From a virus (Duplodnaviria > Heunggongvirae > Uroviricota > Caudoviricetes), in IMG/VR virus record IMGVR_UViG_3300049211_000031, positions 946 through 64,945 of that record: a DNA stretch of 64,000 nucleotides; one strand, given 5' to 3'. Position 1 is the stretch's first letter, and each line of letters begins with the position of its first letter. Positions 2,954 through 11,361 of the stretch are shown one piece after another. The notes beneath the pieces were generated by a model. That model worked only from the letters and a program-made list of their open reading frames with translations, was not told where the DNA came from and did no database searches. The position numbers and the translations under genes are program-made.

Positions 2954-3157
2954 ATGAGCAACAAGAATCTATATCAATGGTTATTTCACTTTAACCCCTA
3001 CAAGGAAATTTGGTTTGCCTTTAAAAGAGAAGACTATGTGAAGTTCTTCAATGGTGACACCGAAATTAAGACAGTAGGCTCAAAGAATATTAATACATTA
3101 ATTGAGTTAGTAGAAAAAACAGATGGTGATGTTTCAAAATTATTAAATTTAGAATAA
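2954..3157 (+). CDS. hypothetical protein (MSNKNLYQWLFHFNPY...)
   Basis: ATG 2954 downstream of promoter, within ORF 2912..3157. Confidence 0.75.
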   Translation: MSNKNLYQWLFHFNPYKEIWFAFKREDYVKFFNGDTEIKTVGSKNINTLIELVEKTDGDVSKLLNLE

Positions 3158-3160
3158 ATA

Positions 3161-3544
3161 ATGGCAAAAGTACAGATGTTAGCTAGATGGTCAGAGTTGT
3201 CAGTGAAACAAAATAATATTGACCAAGGAGAACAAGAACTTAAAAGACTCTTAGGAAACGATAATGAACAAAGCCTATATAGGACAGAAATTGTTCATGA
3301 ATATGGTCCAGTAGTGTTTGAAATGGATGATGTCCATCACTATAACAGAGCTAAGGAAAAAGGACATACAACAATTCATTTTAAGAATGGAGACAGTTTA
3401 GTGCTTAAAATTCCATACATTGAATTCTTAGAAATAGATGTTCAATATTCAGGAAAAACTATTAATGACTTCATTCCTATAGACTATATAGACCCTGAGG
3501 ATGAGGAAATTGATGAGGAAACAGATTCAGATTTAGAACTCTAA
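3161..3544 (+). CDS. hypothetical protein, acidic C-terminus
   Basis: ORF track. Confidence 0.8.
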   Translation: MAKVQMLARWSELSVKQNNIDQGEQELKRLLGNDNEQSLYRTEIVHEYGPVVFEMDDVHHYNRAKEKGHTTIHFKNGDSLVLKIPYIEFLEIDVQYSGKTINDFIPIDYIDPEDEEIDEETDSDLEL

Positions 3545-3552
3545 AAGAAAAA

Positions 3553-3584
3553 TTTGGAAAATTGAAAAAGTTTTCCTACCTTTG
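3553..3584 (+). promoter_or_regulatory. promoter of tRNA array 1
   Basis: TTTG 3553-3556, TACCTTTG 3577-3584, 20-nt spacer. Confidence 0.9.
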
Positions 3585-3611
3585 TGTTCAAATAAAGAAT
3601 AAAAAAGATTT

Positions 3612-3701
3612 ATGCAGTCAACAATCATTATAGTCGGTAGAGGAGCGGAGCGCACAATAAAATGCGGCTCAGGCGTTTCTATGTACTATGATGATATTTA
3701 A
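3612..3701 (+). CDS. attenuator leader peptide 1, MQSTIIIVGRGAERTIKCGSGVSMYYDDI
   Basis: 29-aa ORF between promoter and terminator; codons 5-17 are I,I,I,V,G,R,G,A,E,R,T,I,K, matching array 1 tRNAs. Confidence 0.85.
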   Translation: MQSTIIIVGRGAERTIKCGSGVSMYYDDI

Positions 3702-3762
3702 TTTTCCTTTAGTTTGTCATAACATCGAAGCTCCTGAGCCTTAAAAAAGCTTGGGAGTTTTT
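3624..3762 (+). promoter_or_regulatory. transcription attenuator 1 (protector, antiterminator, terminator)
   Basis: 1:2 ATCATTATAGT(3624-34)/ACTATGATGAT(3685-95) plus inner stems; 2:3 GGCTCAGGCGTTTC(3666-79)/GAAGCTCCTGAGCC(3727-40); 3:4 AAGCTCCTGAGC(3728-39)/GCTTGGGAGTTT(3749-60) plus T run. Confidence 0.85.
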
Positions 3763-3771
3763 GTTTTATAC

Positions 3772-3842
3772 ACTCTCGAAGCTTTAAAGTGAAGCTATAG
3801 GCTTTTAACCTATAGAACACGGGGCAGTACCGTGCGGGAGTA
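3772..3842 (+). tRNA. trnK: tRNA-Lys(UUU)
   Basis: cloverleaf; ATAGG-CT-TTT-AA-CCTAT; T-loop GGCAGTA. Confidence 0.9.
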
Positions 3843-3848
3843 CAATAA

Positions 3849-3921
3849 GGACACATAGTTTAATGGAAAAACATCACGCTACGAACGTGAAGAAGTAAAG
3901 GTTCGACCCCTTTTGTGTCCT
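3849..3921 (+). tRNA. trnR: tRNA-Arg(ACG)
   Basis: TCACG-CT-ACG-AA-CGTGA; acceptor GGACACA/TGTGTCC. Confidence 0.92.
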
Positions 3922-3922
3922 C

Positions 3923-3994
3923 AGAGCTATAGTTAAATGGATATAACAGCATCCTTCTAAGTTGCTATTCTGTGTTCGATTCACAGTAGCTCTA
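3923..3994 (+). tRNA. trnR: tRNA-Arg(UCU)
   Basis: GCATC-CT-TCT-AA-GTTGC; acceptor AGAGCTA/TAGCTCT. Confidence 0.9.
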
Positions 3995-4000
3995 CAACTT

Positions 4001-4071
4001 GCGTTACAAGGATTTCGATAGTCTACCTGACTTCCAATCAGGGGGGCGGGGTTTGACTCCCCGGTAGCGCA
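4001..4071 (+). tRNA. trnG: tRNA-Gly(UCC)
   Basis: CCTGA-CT-TCC-AA-TCAGG. Confidence 0.9.
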
Positions 4072-4076
4072 CAATA

Positions 4077-4148
4077 GCCCTTGTCGTCTAGTAGTTAGGA
4101 CGCTGCCCTTTCAAGGCGGAGAAGACGGAGCGTAACCGTTCGAGGGTA
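4077..4148 (+). tRNA. trnE: tRNA-Glu(UUC)
   Basis: CTGCC-CT-TTC-AA-GGCGG; T-loop AGCGTAA. Confidence 0.9.
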
Positions 4149-4153
4149 CATAT

Positions 4154-4226
4154 CGGCTCGTAGTTTAACTGGTTAAAACTTCCGGCTCATAACCGGATGT
4201 TCTCGGTTCAAGCCCGAGTGAGCCAA
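4154..4226 (+). tRNA. tRNA with CAU anticodon (Met, fMet or Ile2 unresolved)
   Basis: TCCGG-CT-CAT-AA-CCGGA; C1:A72 mismatch; only two G-C pairs at 30-31. Confidence 0.85.
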
Positions 4227-4231
4227 CAAAT

Positions 4232-4303
4232 TGCCTTATAGTAGAATGGTCAGCACGCATCCCTGATAAGGATGAAATCTTGGTTCAATTCCAAGTGAGG
4301 CAA
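4232..4303 (+). tRNA. trnI: tRNA-Ile(GAU)
   Basis: CATCC-CT-GAT-AA-GGATG. Confidence 0.92.
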
Positions 4304-4307
4304 CTAT

Positions 4308-4380
4308 AGGAAGTTCGTATAGTGGTTTAATACATCATCCTTACAAGATGAATTCCTGAGTTCGATTCTCAGACTTCCTA
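4308..4380 (+). tRNA. trnV: tRNA-Val(UAC)
   Basis: TCATC-CT-TAC-AA-GATGA; acceptor AGGAAGT/ACTTCCT. Confidence 0.92.
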
Positions 4381-4385
4381 CTTCT

Positions 4386-4459
4386 GGGGGTACATGTACC
4401 AAGGCTGGCGAGTTTGCCTTGCAAGCAGACTGTGGTCGTTTCGATTACGACTATCTCCA
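4386..4459 (+). tRNA. trnA: tRNA-Ala(UGC)
   Basis: TTTGC-CT-TGC-AA-GCAGA; G3:U70 alanine identity pair present. Confidence 0.9.
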
Positions 4460-4465
4460 CCTGAA

Positions 4466-4497
4466 TTTGGTAGATTCAAATATTTACCATATCTTTG
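4466..4497 (+). promoter_or_regulatory. promoter of tRNA array 2
   Basis: TTTG 4466-4469, TATCTTTG 4490-4497, 20-nt spacer. Confidence 0.9.
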
Positions 4498-4501
4498 TAT
4501 T

Positions 4502-4585
4502 ATGAAATTCGTGAAACAATATCTACTCTCCTATTTATCTAGCCTCAGTTATCCTGTGGCAGGGGAGTATATTGTCGGGTTTTAA
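4502..4585 (+). CDS. attenuator leader peptide 2, MKFVKQYLLSYLSSLSYPVAGEYIVGF (probably leaderless mRNA)
   Basis: 27-aa ORF; codons 7-17 YLLSYLSSLSY are exclusively Leu/Ser/Tyr, matching array 2. Confidence 0.88.
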   Translation: MKFVKQYLLSYLSSLSYPVAGEYIVGF

Positions 4586-4639
4586 CTATCTTAGGAATTT
4601 ACCGGGCTCCCCTGCTACTAAATACAGCAGGGGATTTTT
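4517..4639 (+). promoter_or_regulatory. transcription attenuator 2
   Basis: 1:2 CAATAT..ACTCTCCT(4517-32)/AGGGGAGTATATTG(4561-74); 2:3 GTGGCAGGGGAGT(4556-68)/GCTCCCCTGCTAC(4606-18); 3:4 TCCCCTGCT(4608-16)/AGCAGGGGA(4626-34) plus TTTTT. Confidence 0.88.
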
Positions 4640-4647
4640 ATTTATAT

Positions 4648-4721
4648 ACCTCCGTGGGCAAATAGAAAAGTCGCTAGTCTTAGAAACTAGAGTTTTGCGA
4701 GTGCAAGTCTCGCCGGGGGTA
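4648..4721 (+). tRNA. trnL: tRNA-Leu(UAG), short variable loop
   Basis: CTAGT-CT-TAG-AA-ACTAG; acceptor ACCTCCG/CGGGGGT, A73. Confidence 0.88.
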
Positions 4722-4724
4722 CAC

Positions 4725-4798
4725 AGCGGTGTAGGCTAATTGGTAACGCCGTCAGACTTAAAATCTGAAGTTTGTGAGTTCAAATCTCACCATCGCTA
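4725..4798 (+). tRNA. trnL: tRNA-Leu(UAA), short variable loop
   Basis: TCAGA-CT-TAA-AA-TCTGA. Confidence 0.9.
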
Positions 4799-4803
4799 CA
4801 TAA

Positions 4804-4886
4804 GGAGAGTAAATCAGCATGAAGCTGGGGCGTCCTGCTAAGACGTTCGTACTATTGAGTATGTGGATCAGGGCCACTGCTCTCCG
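4804..4886 (+). tRNA. trnS: tRNA-Ser(GCU)
   Basis: CGTC-CT-GCT-AA-GACG; long variable arm; G73. Confidence 0.85.
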
Positions 4887-4891
4887 CATTT

Positions 4892-4976
4892 GGAGGATTG
4901 CCAGAGCTGGTAATGGCGCTGTCTTGAAAACAGAGGGCGGGTAATACCGACAGGAGTTCGATTCTTCTATCCTCCG
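4892..4976 (+). tRNA. trnS: tRNA-Ser(UGA)
   Basis: CTGT-CT-TGA-AA-ACAG; long variable arm; G73. Confidence 0.92.
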
Positions 4977-4983
4977 CTTTATT

Positions 4984-5066
4984 GGGAGTTTATACCGTAG
5001 GGGTAGCGGGCCTGACTGTAAATCAGGTGGCTTTGGTCTCGGGTGGTTCGACGCCATCAGCTCCCA
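4984..5066 (+). tRNA. trnY: tRNA-Tyr(GUA)
   Basis: CTGA-CT-GTA-AA-TCAG; extended variable arm. Confidence 0.92.
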
Positions 5067-5079
5067 CTTTAAAATAAAA

Positions 5080-5111
5080 TTTGGAAAATTCAAAAATTTG
5101 TTTTACCTTTG
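5080..5111 (+). promoter_or_regulatory. promoter of tRNA array 3
   Basis: TTTG 5080-5083, TACCTTTG 5104-5111, 20-nt spacer; AAATTTGGAAAATT shared with promoter 1. Confidence 0.9.
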
Positions 5112-5115
5112 CACT

Positions 5116-5193
5116 ATGATTAACAACTGGCATAATACATTTACCTTCACTCCCAATCAACCTGATCGGGCTAGGGTGTATTGTGCTAACTAA
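5116..5193 (+). CDS. attenuator leader peptide 3, MINNWHNTFTFTPNQPDRARVYCAN (probably leaderless mRNA)
   Basis: 25-aa ORF; codons 3-17 use only N,W,H,T,F,P,Q,D, the eight specificities of array 3. Confidence 0.9.
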   Translation: MINNWHNTFTFTPNQPDRARVYCAN

Positions 5194-5246
5194 GGATTTT
5201 CTTACGTTTTTCCATACACCCTCAGTCAAAAAGCTGAGGGTTTTTT
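5131..5246 (+). promoter_or_regulatory. transcription attenuator 3
   Basis: 1:2 CATAATACAT(5131-40)/GTGTATTGTG(5176-85) plus inner CCT/AGG and CCC/GGG; 2:3 AGGGTGTAT(5173-81)/ATACACCCT(5214-22); 3:4 CCCTCAGT(5219-26)/GCTGAGGG(5233-40) plus TTTTTT. Confidence 0.88.
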
Positions 5247-5254
5247 ATTTTAAT

Positions 5255-5329
5255 CGAGTAGTGTCGGGAATGGTAATTCCGTCTTCCCTTGGAAGGAAGG
5301 GCATGCTAGTTCGAGCCTAGTCTACTCGA
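5255..5329 (+). tRNA. trnP: tRNA-Pro(UGG)
   Basis: CTTCC-CT-TGG-AA-GGAAG; C1-G72, A73. Confidence 0.9.
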
Positions 5330-5336
5330 CTTTAAC

Positions 5337-5407
5337 GGTGTATTGGTGAAATGGTATCATACTTGTCTGTCTAACAAGTGTCCTCGGATCGTAACCGTGA
5401 TACACCG
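5337..5407 (+). tRNA. trnD: tRNA-Asp(GUC)
   Basis: CTTGT-CT-GTC-TA-ACAAG; G73; unusual U37. Confidence 0.88.
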
Positions 5408-5412
5408 CAATT

Positions 5413-5483
5413 GGGAAATTAGCTCAAAAGTAGAGCGAGAAGCTGTTAACTTCAGGACGGTGGAGCGTTACCATCATTTCCCG
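5413..5483 (+). tRNA. trnN: tRNA-Asn(GUU)
   Basis: GAAG-CT-GTT-AA-CTTC; G73. Confidence 0.9.
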
Positions 5484-5493
5484 CTTAACACAC

Positions 5494-5594
5494 TAATGGG
5501 TGGTGGAATTTGGCAGACGCACCTCCTCGTCTCGGTGGCGCAGATAAAGGAAATAAATAACCTCTGCATGTACGTTCAAATCGTACCCCATTAG
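5494..5594 (+). ncRNA. atypical tRNA-like RNA (GUC at the anticodon position, C33/U37, ~31-nt variable arm)
   Basis: acceptor TAATGGG/CCCATTA+G73; Leu-type D arm; CCTCC-TC-GTC-TC-GGTGG; T arm GTACG-TTCAAAT-CGTAC. Confidence 0.7.
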
Positions 5595-5600
5595 CTTAAC

Positions 5601-5674
5601 GCCTGCTGTAGCTCAACTGGTAGAGCAATCCCCTTGTAAGGGAAAGGTTGTCGATTCGATTTCGACCTCAGGCT
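5601..5674 (+). tRNA. trnT: tRNA-Thr(UGU), irregular acceptor stem
   Basis: TCCC-CT-TGT-AA-GGGA; 8-nt 5' strand GCCTGCTG against 7-nt CTCAGGC. Confidence 0.8.
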
Positions 5675-5726
5675 CACATAAAGAAGTTAAGGATGCGCAC
5701 GTAGAAATATGCCTTAATTTCTGGAA

Positions 5727-5797
5727 GGGGAGATAACTCAATGGTAGAGTAGAGGCCTGAAGAGCCTTAAATGCAAGTTCGACTCTTGCTCTCCCCA
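5727..5797 (+). tRNA. trnF: tRNA-Phe(GAA)
   Basis: AGGC-CT-GAA-GA-GCCT; acceptor GGGGAGA/TCTCCCC. Confidence 0.92.
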
Positions 5798-5804
5798 CTT
5801 ATAA

Positions 5805-5875
5805 TGCCTTGTAGTAGAAAAGTAACACGTCGGGTTTTGACCCCGAAGAAGATTGGGCGGTACAATCCAAGGCAT
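5805..5875 (+). tRNA. trnQ: tRNA-Gln(UUG)
   Basis: TCGGG-TT-TTG-AC-CCCGA; U1-A72. Confidence 0.88.
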
Positions 5876-5877
5876 CT

Positions 5878-5948
5878 GTGACTGAAGCTTTTGAGTAAAG
5901 TGCCTCTCTGTGAAAGAGGAGAATGGAGTGCGAGTCTCCACTGTCACC
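5878..5948 (+). tRNA. trnH: tRNA-His(GUG), no encoded G-1
   Basis: CCTCT-CT-GTG-AA-AGAGG; C73; base at -1 is T. Confidence 0.88.
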
Positions 5949-5952
5949 TTAT

Positions 5953-6025
5953 ACGGGATTCGTATAGTGGTTATTATCTCGGTCTCCAAAACCGTAGGAC
6001 AGATGTTCGAATCGTCTATCCCGTG
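5953..6025 (+). tRNA. trnW: tRNA-Trp(CCA)
   Basis: TCGGT-CT-CCA-AA-ACCG; G73. Confidence 0.9.
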
Positions 6026-6027
6026 CT

Positions 6028-6053
6028 AAAGCTCCTTAAAAGGGAGCTTTTTT
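6028..6053 (+). terminator. intrinsic terminator closing the tRNA region
   Basis: AAAGCTCCT-taaaa-GGGAGCTTT plus T run. Confidence 0.85.
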
Positions 6054-6082
6054 CATTTATTTTAAAAATAGTTTGTAAAATT

Positions 6083-6114
6083 CTTGACTTTGCCAAAAAT
6101 TTTCTGTAGCTTTG
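6083..6114 (+). promoter_or_regulatory. Bacteroidota-type promoter with no substantial ORF downstream
   Basis: CTTG 6083-6086, TAGCTTTG 6107-6114, 20-nt spacer. Confidence 0.6.
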
Positions 6115-6234
6115 TCAGCGCGGAGTCGCACTAACAAACCAACAGAGTGTCTGTTGAGCGCGAGAGTCGCAGAGAGTTTAGAATATGGGTAGAGAAGAGG
6201 TGTTAAGATAAGATTTAAGAAAATTACCAAATTA

Positions 6235-6266
6235 TTTGGAAAATTACAATAATAGTTCTATCTTTG
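6235..6266 (+). promoter_or_regulatory. promoter of the pre-terminase operon
   Basis: TTTG 6235-6238, TATCTTTG 6259-6266, 20-nt spacer. Confidence 0.85.
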
Positions 6267-6281
6267 TTAAGAATTTGAAAA

Positions 6282-6623
6282 ATGCAACTAGTAAAGATAC
6301 GAAAGAAAACCAGTAGTAAAGTAGAACAAGCTAAGACAATGATTAGCATTTTCTGTTTACTAACAAATATCAAACTGTCAGATACAGAGTTGACAGTACT
6401 TGCATATTTCATGGTGTATAAAATAAATAGAAAAACAAAAGATCTTATTCTAAGTGCAGGTATTCTAAAATCAGACGACAGTTTAAAGAACACTCTGTCT
6501 AAATTAAAGAAATTTGGAATGCTTGTTAGGAATATAGACAGTAAGGAGTATTCTCTAAGAAAGGAATTAGACTTTACACTCACTCCTGCAATGGGCGTTC
6601 TTATAAAAATTGATAATGCTTAA
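6282..6623 (+). CDS. putative winged-helix DNA-binding protein
   Basis: basic, helix-helix-beta hairpin pattern; family inferred by eye. Confidence 0.6.
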   Translation: MQLVKIRKKTSSKVEQAKTMISIFCLLTNIKLSDTELTVLAYFMVYKINRKTKDLILSAGILKSDDSLKNTLSKLKKFGMLVRNIDSKEYSLRKELDFTLTPAMGVLIKIDNA

Positions 6624-7138
6624 TGAAGGATATTAAGATAGTTTCAAGATTGGTAGCAAGAGAGTTTAACTATGATCCAGAGCTAACAGAGGATGTGAAT
6701 GACTTCTTCTGGAAAGAAACAAGAAAGATGCTATCTTCTATGGAATACACTTCAGTTTCAATCAAATGTCTTTGTACTCTCACTGTCTCTAAGAGAAAAG
6801 TAGATTACATAATAAAAAAGTTGATAGGAAAGATAAGGAATATTCGTAAGTCTACAAGATATAAAGAAAGTACAACAGCCCTCTTATTAGAAGTGAACTA
6901 TGACAAGCTAAGAAAAGCTTTAAAACAAAGAAATATATTAGCTAAACAATACTATGAAAATTACACTAAAAGGATTAGCAGAGTACGTGAAGCTTCTTCC
7001 AGCAATAATAGCGAACTCGGACAAGATATTAGAGGCAACATGGAATCAGGTGAAGAACGAGTTGGGGATGCTGAAAGAAGAGGAACAACAGGAAATAGTG
7101 AGGAGACGATTAATATGTGCAACATGCCCTTTCAATAG
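6623..7138 (+). CDS. putative HU/IHF-like DNA-binding protein with C-terminal tail overlapping the next gene
   Basis: N-terminal helical, basic region; crAss-like gene order. Confidence 0.55.
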   Translation: MKDIKIVSRLVAREFNYDPELTEDVNDFFWKETRKMLSSMEYTSVSIKCLCTLTVSKRKVDYIIKKLIGKIRNIRKSTRYKESTTALLLEVNYDKLRKALKQRNILAKQYYENYTKRISRVREASSSNNSELGQDIRGNMESGEERVGDAERRGTTGNSEETINMCNMPFQ

Positions 7139-7412
7139 CTCAAACGCTGTAAAGGATGGATATAAAACAAATAGGATTGATGAGCATTGTATAATGTGTG
7201 GATGTACAATAACAAGAAAAACAAACTCTCTTTCTTCAGATTGTGGAATATCTTGTTGTAATCCCGATTCAGAATGTAATTGTGCTAAAGAAAACGTTAA
7301 AAAATTTAATACAGAGAATAATATAGTAATTGAACCCAAATGGTTCAAATTTAAAAATCAAGAAGATGAGCAACAAACAAAGAATTCAGACGAAGCAACA
7401 GATATTCCATAA
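6954..7412 (+). CDS. Cys-rich putative Zn-binding protein
   Basis: RRRLICATCPF, CIMCGC, DCGISCC motifs. Confidence 0.75.
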   Translation: MKITLKGLAEYVKLLPAIIANSDKILEATWNQVKNELGMLKEEEQQEIVRRRLICATCPFNSSNAVKDGYKTNRIDEHCIMCGCTITRKTNSLSSDCGISCCNPDSECNCAKENVKKFNTENNIVIEPKWFKFKNQEDEQQTKNSDEATDIP

Positions 7413-7590
7413 CTTTGTGGAGATAGTAGAGTTGTTCCCTCAATACACCATAGCTCAACATATGGTACATGTATTACGCCCTCAAACAGGATGTTACCAG
7501 TGGACTGATGAAGAGCTTCTAAGAAAGTTTGAGAAATATAGGGATGAGCTTGAAACTGAATTAGTAGATAATATTAAAGAAGACGAGTAA
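7366..7590 (+). CDS. hypothetical protein (MSNKQRIQ...)
   Basis: ATG 7366 within ORF 7330..7590. Confidence 0.7.
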   Translation: MSNKQRIQTKQQIFHNFVEIVELFPQYTIAQHMVHVLRPQTGCYQWTDEELLRKFEKYRDELETELVDNIKEDE

Positions 7591-7763
7591 TGTTTCTAGC
7601 ATTCTTAGAATACTTTCCAAGTTACTTTAAATTCTATAGATGGATGAGAGGAGGTAATTGGAAATACGTTGTGTGTAAATTCCCAGCACCAATAAATGGA
7701 TGTTGGGTACACAACTCAGAAGCACTCTGGTGGGAACTTATTGAGAAAGAAGAGCAATATTAA
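7590..7763 (+). CDS. small aromatic-rich protein, 57 aa, absent from ORF track
   Basis: TAATG coupling; MFLAFLEYFPSYFKFYRWMRGGNW... Confidence 0.65.
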   Translation: MFLAFLEYFPSYFKFYRWMRGGNWKYVVCKFPAPINGCWVHNSEALWWELIEKEEQY

Positions 7764-7766
7764 AAA

Positions 7767-7925
7767 ATGCTAACTAGTTTTAAATGGTTTAGAAAATTAT
7801 CTAAAGGTTCTTGGTATTTGTACAGAAGTACAGGGCAGCTTCCAGGACTTTTTGGATGCTGGTGGTCAAGAACTAAACATCCAGAGCATAGATATTATTA
7901 TCTCTTAAGAGAAGAACATTACTAA
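7767..7925 (+). CDS. small aromatic-rich protein, 52 aa, likely paralog of 7590-7763
   Basis: MLTSFKWFRKLSKGSWYLY...GCWW. Confidence 0.65.
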   Translation: MLTSFKWFRKLSKGSWYLYRSTGQLPGLFGCWWSRTKHPEHRYYYLLREEHY

Positions 7926-7929
7926 AAAT

Positions 7930-8003
7930 TGCGGGGTGGACTGGAGAGGTGCCAGCTCGGTCTCATAAGCCGGATAACGAGAGTTCGATTCTCTCTCCCG
8001 CAA
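7930..8003 (+). tRNA. trnM: tRNA-Met(CAU), initiator-like
   Basis: acceptor TGCGGGG/TCCCGCA+A73; CT-CAT-AA loop; resembles bacterial fMet tRNAs. Confidence 0.8.
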
Positions 8004-8005
8004 CT

Positions 8006-8203
8006 ATGAAAATAGAAGTAGCCTATAACCCTCTATTTGATTATAACGGTCCATTCATTGAGAATGGGTATACATCAACTTTTATAGATTTCAGTGAGTA
8101 TGCACAAACTAACAATACAAGTTCCTGTCTACCAGTTCAAGTGTGTGGTGATAATCGACAAGGATGTAGAGAGGAAAGCGAACTCCTTCATAAGGAGAAA
8201 TAA
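8006..8203 (+). CDS. possible hypothetical protein overlapping the next gene by 104 nt
   Basis: ATG directly after tRNA; large overlap makes it doubtful. Confidence 0.35.
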   Translation: MKIEVAYNPLFDYNGPFIENGYTSTFIDFSEYAQTNNTSSCLPVQVCGDNRQGCREESELLHKEK

Positions 8204-8513
8204 GTGGAATGAAGACCTTCTTATTAAGGATGGTGACCAAGTCCACGGGTATGCAATAAATCCCGGACTTGTACACACCTACTACATCTTCTACTCAGAA
8301 GAAAGTGTAACACCCAATATTATAACACATGAAGTGTCGCATTTAGTAGACTATGTAATGGGTGACAAAGGTATGGTGGACACAGAAACAAGAGCCTACC
8401 TATCTGGATTTATAAATGAAAAGATATTTGATTACGTATTAAAGAATAAACTACTTATTAATAAATGGCTGGTAAAAGAAAACCTCAACTTGACAGAAAA
8501 CCTTCAAAAGTAG
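8100..8513 (+). CDS. putative zincin-like metalloprotein (HExxH)
   Basis: ITHEVSHL...ETRAYL motif. Confidence 0.7.
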   Translation: MHKLTIQVPVYQFKCVVIIDKDVERKANSFIRRNKWNEDLLIKDGDQVHGYAINPGLVHTYYIFYSEESVTPNIITHEVSHLVDYVMGDKGMVDTETRAYLSGFINEKIFDYVLKNKLLINKWLVKENLNLTENLQK

Positions 8514-8647
8514 AATCTGACACTTGGAAGCTTTCTCCAAGACAAATATTAATTCAAAAGCTAAATATGCTTTTATATGCAGCTCAGATTAATAGAATTA
8601 GTGATGTAGAAGCTAATGAATTATTAAGAATACTTTCGCATATGTAA
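8465..8647 (+). CDS. hypothetical protein
   Basis: ORF ending just before tRNA-Cys. Confidence 0.5.
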   Translation: MAGKRKPQLDRKPSKVESDTWKLSPRQILIQKLNMLLYAAQINRISDVEANELLRILSHM

Positions 8648-8650
8648 TCT

Positions 8651-8720
8651 GCACAGTTTAGTCTTGGAGGCTATTGCGTCTGCAAAACGTTTGGAATCAG
8701 TTCGAATCTGATACTGTGCT
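8651..8720 (+). tRNA. trnC: tRNA-Cys(GCA)
   Basis: GCGT-CT-GCA-AA-ACGT; acceptor GCACAGT/ACTGTGC; U73; short D loop. Confidence 0.88.
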
Positions 8721-8733
8721 CACAAAAACCAAT

Positions 8734-9015
8734 ATGACTAAAGAACGCATATTTATTGTTGGTGATGAAACAAGGATTCTTCAAGAAGAGGTGAGTCTTA
8801 GGCCTTATAATCTCACTGATGCAGATATTATTCATGCAGCTACAGTAATGTCTATTGCTAGATTTATATGGGATTACGAAGCTCGCCTTCAGGATCCTTC
8901 CTTCTATGCAGATATCCCTACATTTGAAATCCCAGAATATCCTAAAAAAGAACCATCGTTCTTTGATAGATTAAAAAGAAAACTAACATGGCTAAGAAAG
9001 TTAATTCATATATAA
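8734..9015 (+). CDS. hypothetical protein (MTKERIF...)
   Basis: ATG 8734 downstream of tRNA-Cys, within ORF 8674..9015. Confidence 0.7.
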   Translation: MTKERIFIVGDETRILQEEVSLRPYNLTDADIIHAATVMSIARFIWDYEARLQDPSFYADIPTFEIPEYPKKEPSFFDRLKRKLTWLRKLIHI

Positions 9016-9311
9016 GTGTTGAACTTGACTGGGCTGAGAATCAGCTCCAGTCTTGGAGGGACTATGTAGATGCTAATCCACTTCATCTATTAGAGGATAG
9101 ATGGGGTAAGAAAGAGATGCCTAAAGGTGGACATACATGGGTAGTAACAGCAACAAAAGAACAGCAAATTAAAGCTGTACAAGAAACAATGGTGAAATAT
9201 CTTCAGCTTCTTGAAGTGGTAGATAAACTTAGAGAGAAAGAAGAAGCTAAGGCTGAAGCTAAAGGGGATGCTGGTATTCCCAATAGAATGAAAAATAAAG
9301 ATGGAAATTAG
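8988..9311 (+). CDS. putative terminase small subunit
   Basis: helical protein overlapping the start of TerL; positional inference. Confidence 0.55.
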   Translation: MAKKVNSYISVELDWAENQLQSWRDYVDANPLHLLEDRWGKKEMPKGGHTWVVTATKEQQIKAVQETMVKYLQLLEVVDKLREKEEAKAEAKGDAGIPNRMKNKDGN

Positions 9312-11361
9312 AACCACAGAGTTTTTTAGAAATTTTAAAAATCTTCCACCTCCAGGTACAAAAGAGTTTGATGATCTAGTTGATTGGGAACTCGATAAGT
9401 GTTTTGGAGGTATTAACATTGGTGGTGTTCACATTCCAGGAATTCTCTATTCCTATCTAAATCACTGGAATATCATTGTCGATACAAAGGATAAATATGG
9501 AAACATTATTCGTACACCCAAGCATCCAGATTTACGTGATAATGAATGGGAACGTGCAGAATACTATGAAAAAGCACGACTTGCCCAAAAGGGATATATT
9601 GAAGTTGGTCTTCGACAAGGTGGAAAGTCAGAGTGGGAAGCGGGGCATATTGGGCTTTCAGCGACGCTCTTCGAGAATAGTCAAAATGTTCTGGTATCTG
9701 GAAATGGTGCTGACTTACGTATTATCACCGAGAAGATTGATTTTGGATGGAAGCATATGTGGGAAGGACTCAAAATCCCAAAACTAGATAAGGATTGGCG
9801 CAGACCTACTCTAAGACTAGGATTTAAAGATAAGAAGAATGAAGACCATGTGTGGAGCTGGATAATGATTCGTAATGCTGAAGAAGGCTTGAATACAGAA
9901 GCTGCAGCGGGTACAACAGCTAAAGCAGCAGTATTTGATGAGATTGGTAAATATCCATTCTCTCCAGTATTTGAGGCTCTTAAACCAGCCCTCTTATCGG
10001 AATTTGGATGGCGTTGTGTACCAATGCTTGTAGGAACAGGCGGTGCCTTCGAAAAAGGTGAGAACGCTGAACGTGTATTCTATCATCCTAGAGCTAACAA
10101 CTTCCAAGAAATAATTGATCCAGAAACAGGTAAAGAAACAGGACTTTTTATGTCAGGTCTTTATAGACAAGACTGTAAATTCTGGTCAAATCTCTATGAG
10201 TATCTTCTATGTAAAGGATATGATAATATAGGAGATGAACTCAAAGACATCGCTATTAAGGTGTCTGACAAAGAGAAAGCTAGGCAAAAGATTGAAGAAG
10301 AGCGTCTTGCCAAGTCTAAAGACCCAGATAAAACGGAGTACTTAAAACTTATAATGTACTACCCTCTTAATCCTAAGGAGTGTTTCTTATCAGGATCAAC
10401 AAACCCGTTCCCTATACAAGCCGCTCAAGATCATTTAGAATTCTTAAGACATAATAATATTACAGGACGTTACGTAAGATTTCATAGAGATTTAAATGGA
10501 AAAGTATACCACAAATTTGCAGAAGACCATGACAGACCAATTAGTGAGTTCCCTACAAAGGGCAACCTGGGTAAAGATTGTCCCGTTGTTATATGGGAAG
10601 AACCAATATCCAATTCTCCAAGAGGTCTATACATCGCGGGGGCTGACCCTTATAATCAGTCCGTGTCTGCGTGGTCAGACTCTTTGGGAACCGTCTGCAT
10701 CTGGAAAAGACAAATAGATGTGGCAGGTGAAACTTATCAAGATCAGGTAGTAGCATCTCTAGCTTCAAGACCTCTTACAATGAATGAGTGGCACGAACAA
10801 GTGGAAATGTTATTAGAATATTACAATGCTGTGTGCTTCCCTGAAAATGAAGCTGGTACATTTATTCAACACTTTGAGCGTAAGAACAAAGGACATCTTC
10901 TAGCAGAAGGATTTAATATTGCTAAAGAGATTAATCCTAATACAAAAGCTACTGGTGGTGGACGTATTTATGGACTAGCAGCTACAGTGAAGAATATTGA
11001 CTTCTGTATGTCTTTAATGTTGGACTACTGTAAAGAGCTAATCCAAGTAGGTACTAATCCAGAAACAGGCGAACCTATTATGAGGCTCGGAATTACACGT
11101 ATTAAAGACCCAATGCTCTTAGAAGAGATTATTAAATATGATAATGAAGGTAACTTTGACCGCGTTGTAGCATTTAGACATGCTTTAGCATACGCTAGAC
11201 ACTTAGATAAGTACTATCCTATAGTAAATATTAAGGAACAACCAAAGGCTACAGAGTTTAAAAGGAACCCTTTTACATCTTCTCCATTCTCACCAGTTAT
11301 GGGAGGATTTACAAAATCAAATAGTCCTTTCCCCAAAATGCCTAAGAATGTTATACGATAA
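9301..11361 (+). CDS. terL: terminase large subunit
   Basis: Walker A-like RQGGKS, Walker B VFDE, nuclease YIAGADPY and NFDRV. Confidence 0.92.
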   Translation: MEIRTTEFFRNFKNLPPPGTKEFDDLVDWELDKCFGGINIGGVHIPGILYSYLNHWNIIVDTKDKYGNIIRTPKHPDLRDNEWERAEYYEKARLAQKGYIEVGLRQGGKSEWEAGHIGLSATLFENSQNVLVSGNGADLRIITEKIDFGWKHMWEGLKIPKLDKDWRRPTLRLGFKDKKNEDHVWSWIMIRNAEEGLNTEAAAGTTAKAAVFDEIGKYPFSPVFEALKPALLSEFGWRCVPMLVGTGGAFEKGENAERVFYHPRANNFQEIIDPETGKETGLFMSGLYRQDCKFWSNLYEYLLCKGYDNIGDELKDIAIKVSDKEKARQKIEEERLAKSKDPDKTEYLKLIMYYPLNPKECFLSGSTNPFPIQAAQDHLEFLRHNNITGRYVRFHRDLNGKVYHKFAEDHDRPISEFPTKGNLGKDCPVVIWEEPISNSPRGLYIAGADPYNQSVSAWSDSLGTVCIWKRQIDVAGETYQDQVVASLASRPLTMNEWHEQVEMLLEYYNAVCFPENEAGTFIQHFERKNKGHLLAEGFNIAKEINPNTKATGGGRIYGLAATVKNIDFCMSLMLDYCKELIQVGTNPETGEPIMRLGITRIKDPMLLEEIIKYDNEGNFDRVVAFRHALAYARHLDKYYPIVNIKEQPKATEFKRNPFTSSPFSPVMGGFTKSNSPFPKMPKNVIR

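Follow-up and report, generated by a model that had tools for sequence, protein, structure and literature searches.

Predicted leader-peptide attenuators, codon-matched to the tRNAs that they precede, in the tRNA gene cluster of an uncultured crAss-like phage

The closest known counterparts of the tRNA gene cluster considered here, which lies in a 64,000-nucleotide stretch (the window) of the viral record IMGVR_UViG_3300049211_000031, are the leaders of the ilvGMEDA (Ile/Leu/Val) and thr (Thr/Ile) operons, which are similar in having a translated leader with regulatory codons for more than one amino acid, in their 1:2, 2:3 and 3:4 pairings, and in placing a terminator ahead of the controlled genes that is read through when the ribosome stalls. 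The pheST operon with its pheM leader is similar in that an attenuator acts on a component of the translation apparatus through the decoding of its own codons, though it responds to a single amino acid and has a protein-coding target in a host gene, whereas the phage units are built around multi-tRNA arrays. T-box leaders (RF00230) likewise respond to the state of tRNAs by switching between terminator and antiterminator upstream of translation-related genes, but they bind one uncharged tRNA through a specifier codon, with no translation, whereas each phage unit has a many-codon open reading frame (ORF). Other phage tRNA clusters, for example that of T4, and host tRNA genes are likewise tandem tRNA genes transcribed as a precursor, and to our knowledge no codon-sensing leader has been described for any of them. 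The expression of tRNA genes is generally ascribed to promoter strength and growth-rate control, and phage tRNAs are mostly seen either as constitutive supplements to codon usage or as substitutes for cleaved host tRNAs. The cluster in the window consists of three units, in each of which a Bacteroidota-type promoter and a short ORF are followed by a strong intrinsic terminator and then by a tRNA array, and it probably contains three ribosome-mediated leader-peptide transcription attenuators, each controlling one block of phage tRNAs.

Compared with the ilv and thr leaders, the phage units would control tRNA genes rather than biosynthetic enzymes, which places them outside the classical scope of attenuators (amino-acid biosynthesis or synthetase genes). 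Their product would directly relieve the stall, and what would be sensed is the pool of tRNAs, not the amino acid, with each leader monitoring up to 9-13 tRNA species at codon-family resolution. The promoters also differ, being of the Bacteroidota sigma-A type, and most of the leaders are predicted to be leaderless mRNAs. An Rfam search of positions 3000-9500 at E <= 1 returned no Trp, His, Leu, Thr or Phe leader and no T-box family, but only tRNAs and sub-threshold matches to Plastid-ycf2 (antisense of tRNAs) and SpF41 sRNA. Full-text literature searches, in a collection with few subscription journals, did not find leader-peptide attenuation of tRNA genes or of phage tRNA arrays. A Phe-rich, attenuator-like leader of the E. 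coli tRNA-Phe genes was considered as a precedent and set aside, as the region upstream of pheV shows a promoter but no such ORF.

The window covers bases 946-64945 of the contig (128,945 base pairs, 35.7% G+C), and all features described are on its plus strand. In unit 1 the promoter at 3553-3584, with a -33 TTTG, a spacer of 20 nucleotides (nt) and the -7 box TACCTTTG, is followed by a leader ORF of 29 amino acids (3612-3701), a terminator at 3730-3768 (stem 3730-3758, T run 3759-3768, free energy (ΔG) -13.0 kcal/mol), and tRNA array 1 (3772-4461), which encodes Lys(TTT), Arg(ACG), Arg(TCT), Gly(TCC), Glu(TTC), a tRNA with a CAT anticodon, Ile(GAT), Val(TAC) and Ala(TGC). Unit 2 has its promoter at 4466-4497, a leader ORF of 27 amino acids (4502-4585), a terminator at 4608-4643 (stem 4608-4634, then the T run, ΔG -15.4 kcal/mol), and array 2 (4648-5067), with Leu(TAG), Leu(TAA), Ser(GCT), Ser(TGA) and Tyr(GTA). 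Unit 3 has its promoter at 5080-5111, a leader ORF of 25 amino acids (5116-5193), a terminator at 5218-5251 (stem 5218-5241, then the T run, ΔG -14.3 kcal/mol), and array 3 (5255-6026), in which Pro, Asp and Asn are followed by an odd tRNA-like element (5484-5600) and then by Thr, Phe, Gln, His and Trp. The terminators lie 25-30 nt past the leader stop codons, and there is no terminator between the end of an array and the next promoter within the cluster, so that each attenuator terminator also closes the preceding array; a final terminator at 6028-6057 closes the cluster. A scan of the whole genome (129 kilobases, both strands) for a -7 box followed by an ATG, an ORF of 12-45 amino acids and a strong terminator returned only the three unit sites.

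Each leader holds a run of codons that corresponds to the array behind it. Run 1 (3624-3662, IIIVGRGAERTIK) has 12 of its 13 codons cognate to tRNAs of array 1 and covers all nine anticodons, run 2 (4520-4552, YLLSYLSSLSY) is cognate in 11/11 codons and covers all five anticodons of array 2, and run 3 (5122-5166, NNWHNTFTFTPNQPD) is cognate in 15/15 codons and covers eight of eight anticodons of array 3. Split codon families are matched as well: run 1 contains AGA, which corresponds to Arg(TCT), and CGC, which corresponds to Arg(ACG), besides AUC and AUU for Ile(GAT) and two AUA codons for the CAT tRNA, and run 2 contains Leu codons of both the CUN and the UUA type and Ser codons of both the UCN and the AGY type. 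The codon matching is far beyond chance: the best-segment scores against random peptides with the amino-acid frequencies of the phage have P values of 0.005, <1e-6 and 2e-6 for units 1, 2 and 3, respectively, and among ~30,000 codon windows taken from the ORFs of the phage itself, none equals the observed number of cognate codons while also covering every anticodon. The match is confined to the ORF frame, the other two frames being no better than background. The first-pass annotation of this DNA had described three such promoter-leader-terminator-array units, the elements of which were all recovered at or near the positions that it gave, and it had held that the codons of each run are drawn almost only from the amino acids of the following tRNAs, with every one represented; the full representation stands in all three units, and one codon of run 1, ACA (Thr), is not cognate. 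It had also listed Ile, Val, Gly, Arg, Ala, Glu and Lys for unit 1, all of which are there, but it had omitted the CAT tRNA (4154-4227), to which the two AUA codons correspond and which is probably a tRNA-Ile2 (reading AUA by means of lysidine) rather than a tRNA-Met.

Relatives were collected through homologues of the terminase, with identities to the window terminase of 31-73% (L001, 73%; L003 and L005, 63-64%; more distant relatives, ~48-54%). Leader ORFs of 20-36 amino acids are kept in position in every relative examined. In L001, L003 and L005 the three-way partition of the tRNAs is kept, and the order of residues in the run differs while the composition is the same, as in the unit 1 run of L001 (IGGIEIIREAGRK) and the unit 3 run of L005 (NTWHTNFTFNPNQPDT). 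L031, L022 and L027 divide their tRNAs in two, and each leader lists the set of its own array. In L031, LRPLSLHSYLQSE stands ahead of Pro, Gln, His, Arg(ACG), Leu, Leu, Ser, Ser, Tyr and Glu, and NNWTNIIFTAFATDCGKVGI stands ahead of Ala, Asp, Asn, Trp, Thr, CAT, Lys, Ile, Val, Gly and Cys; in L027, the leader with RNNWFNNAAAFTTTDCG is followed by Ala, Gly, Asp, Asn, Trp, Thr, Arg(TCT), Phe and Cys. Smaller tRNA sets are found in L083, L070 and L004; the leader LQHYQPACLYLY of L083 stands before Ala, Gln, His, Leu, Pro, Tyr and Cys, and the leader TNHTTNQPNPQD of L070 before Pro, Asp, Asn, Thr, Gln and His. When all leaders were scored against all arrays the matrix was sharply diagonal, and a leader/array contingency over codons 2-18 of ten units with distinct partitions, which are not fully independent, gave an odds ratio of 43 (P = 5e-21).

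The co-variation extends to single anticodons. Arg codons track the Arg anticodons, CGC occurring with Arg(ACG) and AGA or AGG with Arg(TCT), the leaders of arrays with only Leu(TAG) have CUN Leu codons only, and AUA codons are present in every leader that precedes an array with a CAT tRNA. In the window, L003 and L005, where Gln(TTG) is the sole Gln tRNA, every in-run Gln codon is CAA, and both CAG and CAA are found within the run in L001, the sole phage with both Gln(CTG) and Gln(TTG); the L027A and L031A leaders also contain CAG, which is readable by U34 wobble. Between the window and L003, leader 2 differs by seven synonymous and three non-synonymous codon changes, a ratio that speaks for selection on the ORF, and the changes in the terminator stem are compensatory. 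In L003, L005, L031 and L087, genes for HNH or homing-endonuclease-like proteins and other small genes are inserted between the tRNAs of one array, and the leader composition still covers the tRNAs on both sides of the insertions.

The same leader-terminator-array design is found in two isolated phages, Cellulophaga phage phi4:1 and phage Lbo-JY46. A leader of Lbo-JY46 that begins MKITRQHTQFWFPT... precedes Pro, Thr, Phe, Gln, His, Arg(ACG) and Trp, a leader of phi4:1 that begins MKIQRLHLQELEQP... precedes Pro, Glu, Gln, His, Leu, Leu and Arg(ACG), and each phage has two further units. The leader of the second tRNA array of phi4:1 is annotated as the hypothetical protein gp075 (NC_021788.1, 86300-91300; sites 1690-1809 and 3818-3919); it is without an ATG, and it is possible that it starts at an in-frame GTG or as a leaderless non-AUG mRNA. 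The annotated gp076 of the same phage overlaps a tRNA-Ser and is probably spurious. Lbo-JY46 (L087; PP438436.1, 1780-6800) is on record as a Leptolyngbya phage, that is, with a cyanobacterial host, yet its promoters are of the Bacteroidota type (TTTG/TAnnTTTG) and its terminase is 47% identical to that of the window, and the recorded host may deserve a second look. The existence of isolated phages with the design (phi4:1/phi17:2 and Lbo-JY46) makes the attenuator hypothesis directly testable.

In each window unit a segment near the end of the leader ORF is complementary to the 5' arm of the terminator and could serve as the antiterminator strand (segment 2). In unit 1 this strand lies at 3666-3679 and pairs with 3728-3740, giving a 2:3 duplex with a ΔG of -14.9 kcal/mol against -7.0 in dinucleotide shuffles (fraction 0.004); in unit 2 it lies at 4557-4568 and pairs with the terminator 5' arm (-22.4 against -11.6, fraction 0.000), and in unit 3 it lies at 5173-5181 and pairs with 5214-5222 (-13.3, fraction 0.032). 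Many of the leaders have a motif containing Cys-Gly (KCGSG, DCGKG, DCGR) just past the run, for example at 3663-3680, which overlaps the antiterminator strand and is therefore probably dictated by the RNA and not by the peptide. When the free leader RNA is folded to its minimum energy, all three window units show the sensor run paired with the 3' portion of the ORF (1:2), together with the terminator hairpin (3:4). With the ribosome modelled by masking the RNA up to 12 nt beyond the A-site codon, a ribosome at the stop codon leaves the terminator to form in all units that were folded, while with a ribosome stalled at most positions of the run the segment near the ORF end captures the terminator 5' arm, as seen in RNA that ends before the 3' arm; for the window units, the full leader with a stalled ribosome likewise has the antiterminator as its state of lowest energy. 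An inverse logic, in which fast translation would give read-through, was considered and rejected, since the terminator stays intact in all units with the ribosome at the stop codon. The modelled folds are those of classical attenuator logic, in which stalling would lead to read-through.

Across the window and its relatives, a terminator with a canonical T run lies 25-45 nt past the stop codon in 19 of 20 units, the twentieth being a variant with the hairpin present and the T run interrupted, and antiterminator complementarity is greater than in shuffles for 16 of 19 units, the three of the window among them. The mutually exclusive 1:2, 2:3 and 3:4 pairings that the first-pass annotation had described were thus reproduced by folding, with 2:3 duplexes stronger than those of shuffles in each window unit. 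Its broader proposal of a trp/his-type attenuator with sensor codons matched to the gated tRNAs gains support from the conserved switch, the logic of which is kept in 19-20 of the 20 units examined, and from the comparison of relatives that it had suggested, in which leader composition changes with the array and the same leader was not seen before differing arrays.

The promoters suggest how the leaders would be initiated. Motifs of the form TTTG-N20-TAnnTTTG, which are the Bacteroidota sigma-A promoter consensus, occur 12 times in the window compared with 1.5 expected. In unit 1 the ATG is preceded by a 5' untranslated region of 27 nt that is A-rich, while in units 2 and 3 the ATG is separated from the -7 box by 4 nt, and an ATG 4-5 nt past the TAnnTTTG box is found in 11-12 of the 20 units, these two included. 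In Flavobacterium psychrophilum the TAnnTTTG box occupies -12 to -5 (PMC9723704), so that an ATG 4-5 nt downstream would put +1 on or beside its A, and most leaders, including those of window units 2 and 3, are on this spacing predicted to be leaderless mRNAs with initiation at a 5' AUG. Leaderless mRNAs make up 5.5% and ~3.7% of mRNAs in two Bacteroidota transcriptomes (PMC9723704 among the sources), and because they are so few the leaderless arrangement here looks selected; a plausible benefit is that a ribosome could load on the 5' AUG as soon as it exits the polymerase. No separate promoter precedes the second leaders of L022, L027 and L031, and these would operate within a longer transcript.

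From the anatomy of the units, the matching of codons and anticodons, the alternative pairings and the co-variation across phages, all read from sequence, we infer leader translation, the termination or read-through that would follow from it, and a physiological trigger. A ribosome would translate the short leader as the leader RNA emerges from RNA polymerase. If all codons of the run are decoded fast, it would reach the stop codon and either cover segment 2 or let 1:2 re-pair behind it, so that the terminator (3:4) forms and transcription ends ahead of the tRNAs. If any tRNA species of the block is scarce or uncharged, the ribosome would stall in the run, segment 2 would pair with the terminator 5' arm once this is made, and the polymerase would read into the tRNA array; the tRNAs made would then speed decoding and close the block again. 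As the products are the tRNAs that would relieve the stall, each unit would be a self-limiting, demand-driven supply loop, and the three channels together would cover 18 amino acids. Candidate triggers are depletion or cleavage of host tRNAs (the latter by a defence nuclease), the codon demand of late infection, and starvation. Negative feedback on tRNA supply, or the sensing of codon demand, fits the data as well as does a conditional counter-defence induced by starvation or anticodon nucleases. It is likely, more generally, that crAss-like phages of Bacteroidota run closed-loop tRNA homeostats, in which a leaderless mini-ORF would gauge decoding per codon family and a block would be transcribed on demand.

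Several observations weigh against the attenuator model. The run of window unit 1 contains a non-cognate codon, the ACA (Thr) noted above, leader 1 of L001 retains Val and Ala codons while no Val or Ala tRNA was detected, and the leader of L004, which precedes Pro, Arg, Phe, His and Trp, matches only weakly (P = 0.07) and has an antiterminator no better than shuffles. When the ribosome is stalled, the full-length leaders of several relatives still have the terminator in their minimum-energy fold, so that the switch there must be kinetic; such kinetic dependence is usual for attenuators. A stall at the last 2-3 codons of the run would mask segment 2, and no antitermination would result. Leaderless mRNAs are rare in Bacteroidota (3.7-5.5%). 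Finally, starvation would also cause read-through though extra tRNA would then be useless, which leaves the selected signal ambiguous.

Of the other explanations that have to be considered, the one sharing most with the attenuator model accepts leader translation and the match to the tRNAs but places the output elsewhere, in processing of the tRNA precursor, in its stability or in RNase access, or takes the leader to be a test or sink for new tRNAs. The codon matching, which indicates that decoding is sensed, leaves the output unspecified, and the promoterless second leaders of L022, L027 and L031, lying inside a longer transcript, would suit a role in processing. Nonetheless, a strong terminator and T run stand behind every leader (with the one interrupted T run described above), and just upstream of the stop codon 16 of 19 units have, beyond the level of shuffles, a segment complementary to the terminator 5' arm; a processing model needs neither, and we consider an output of this kind improbable. 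Direct binding of tRNA by the leader RNA, with the ORF incidental, would have a precedent in the T-box leaders, which likewise sense tRNA status through a terminator/antiterminator switch. No T-box or other Rfam cis-regulatory family was detected in the searched region at E <= 1, however, 10-15 different codons would need to serve as specifiers, the match holds strictly in one frame bounded by an ATG and a stop codon, and the changes in leader 2 are mostly synonymous, all of which makes a T-box-like leader very unlikely.

The conserved position and length of the ORFs would also be expected if they encoded functional micropeptides, for example inhibitors of host factors, with terminators that merely insulate. 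Among the relatives, though, residue order is scrambled while the composition is kept and follows the tRNA content of the array, a pattern that a folded or binding peptide would not show, and a terminator directly past a promoter would be senseless as an insulator; we give this explanation very little credence. That short ORFs in AT-rich intergenic DNA resemble tRNA sets by chance or as an annotation artefact would be easier to entertain from the abundance of such ORFs, 42 of at least 20 amino acids overlapping the region, but the P values and genome-wide controls, the frame specificity, and the repeated, independent co-variation in more than ten phages leave it almost no room.

If the leader-peptide attenuator model is correct, the phage could replace host tRNAs that are depleted, cleaved by a defence nuclease or out-competed late in infection, and the cluster would be the first case of tRNA genes regulated by the translation of their own cognate codons. 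It would constitute a feedback sensor of decoding capacity that sets the tRNA supply, multivalent and with resolution at the level of the anticodon, and it would offer a mechanistic handle on when and why phages need tRNAs, with bearing on the debate between codon usage and counter-defence. It would also represent a natural, compact and programmable sensor for the availability of individual tRNAs.

The tRNA content on which the matching depends was assembled from several sources. ARAGORN with default settings reports 17 tRNAs at 3849-6026, together with Met at 7930 (a second CAT tRNA, 7930-8004) and Cys at 8651, both of which sit outside the three units. Five tRNAs of the cluster were missed by this search (3772-3842, 4388-4461, 4803-4885, 5413-5483 and 5805-5875). 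Of these, three exceed the gathering score in Rfam, namely Lys(TTT) at 3772-3842, Asn(GTT) at 5413-5483 and Gln(TTG) at 5805-5875. The other two are weaker calls, Ala(TGC) at 4388-4459 (22 bits in Rfam, and also found by ARAGORN with a relaxed threshold) and Ser(GCT) at 4803-4885, recovered only by ARAGORN with a relaxed threshold. At a threshold of 75% ARAGORN gave false positives within protein genes, and only calls inside arrays were accepted; in the relatives, Rfam at the gathering threshold missed tRNAs that ARAGORN detected. Several of the five missed tRNAs have short or irregular D arms, so that automatic annotation would undercount the tRNAs of this phage. The odd tRNA-like element of array 3 (5484-5600), between Asn and Thr, has an acceptor stem, a canonical T arm, an extra arm that is long and A-rich, and an anticodon region that is aberrant; in ARAGORN it is read only if a 17-nt intron is assumed, or else as a doubtful Ala or Leu. 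It is kept in L001 (6286-6395), the relative with 73% terminase identity, and an exact-pattern search with the element matched only one contig, which had already been collected.

With regard to the genome as a whole, the terminase and portal of the window match phage families, a Pfam Crass_capsid match is found in the capsid gene adjoining the terminase homologue in relatives, and Chitinophaga genomes hold some of the terminase homologues. A DNA search of the INPHARED phage collection for close relatives gave generic tRNA matches only, and the 127-amino-acid protein encoded upstream, used as a probe among viral contigs, returned no relatives. Directly past the final terminator of the cluster, positions 6085-6200 contain a promoter-like motif and then a stretch of ~80 nt before the next promoter (6235). 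Within this stretch, possibly a small RNA, are a hairpin and a GCGCG-AGTCGCA-like repeat that occurs twice.

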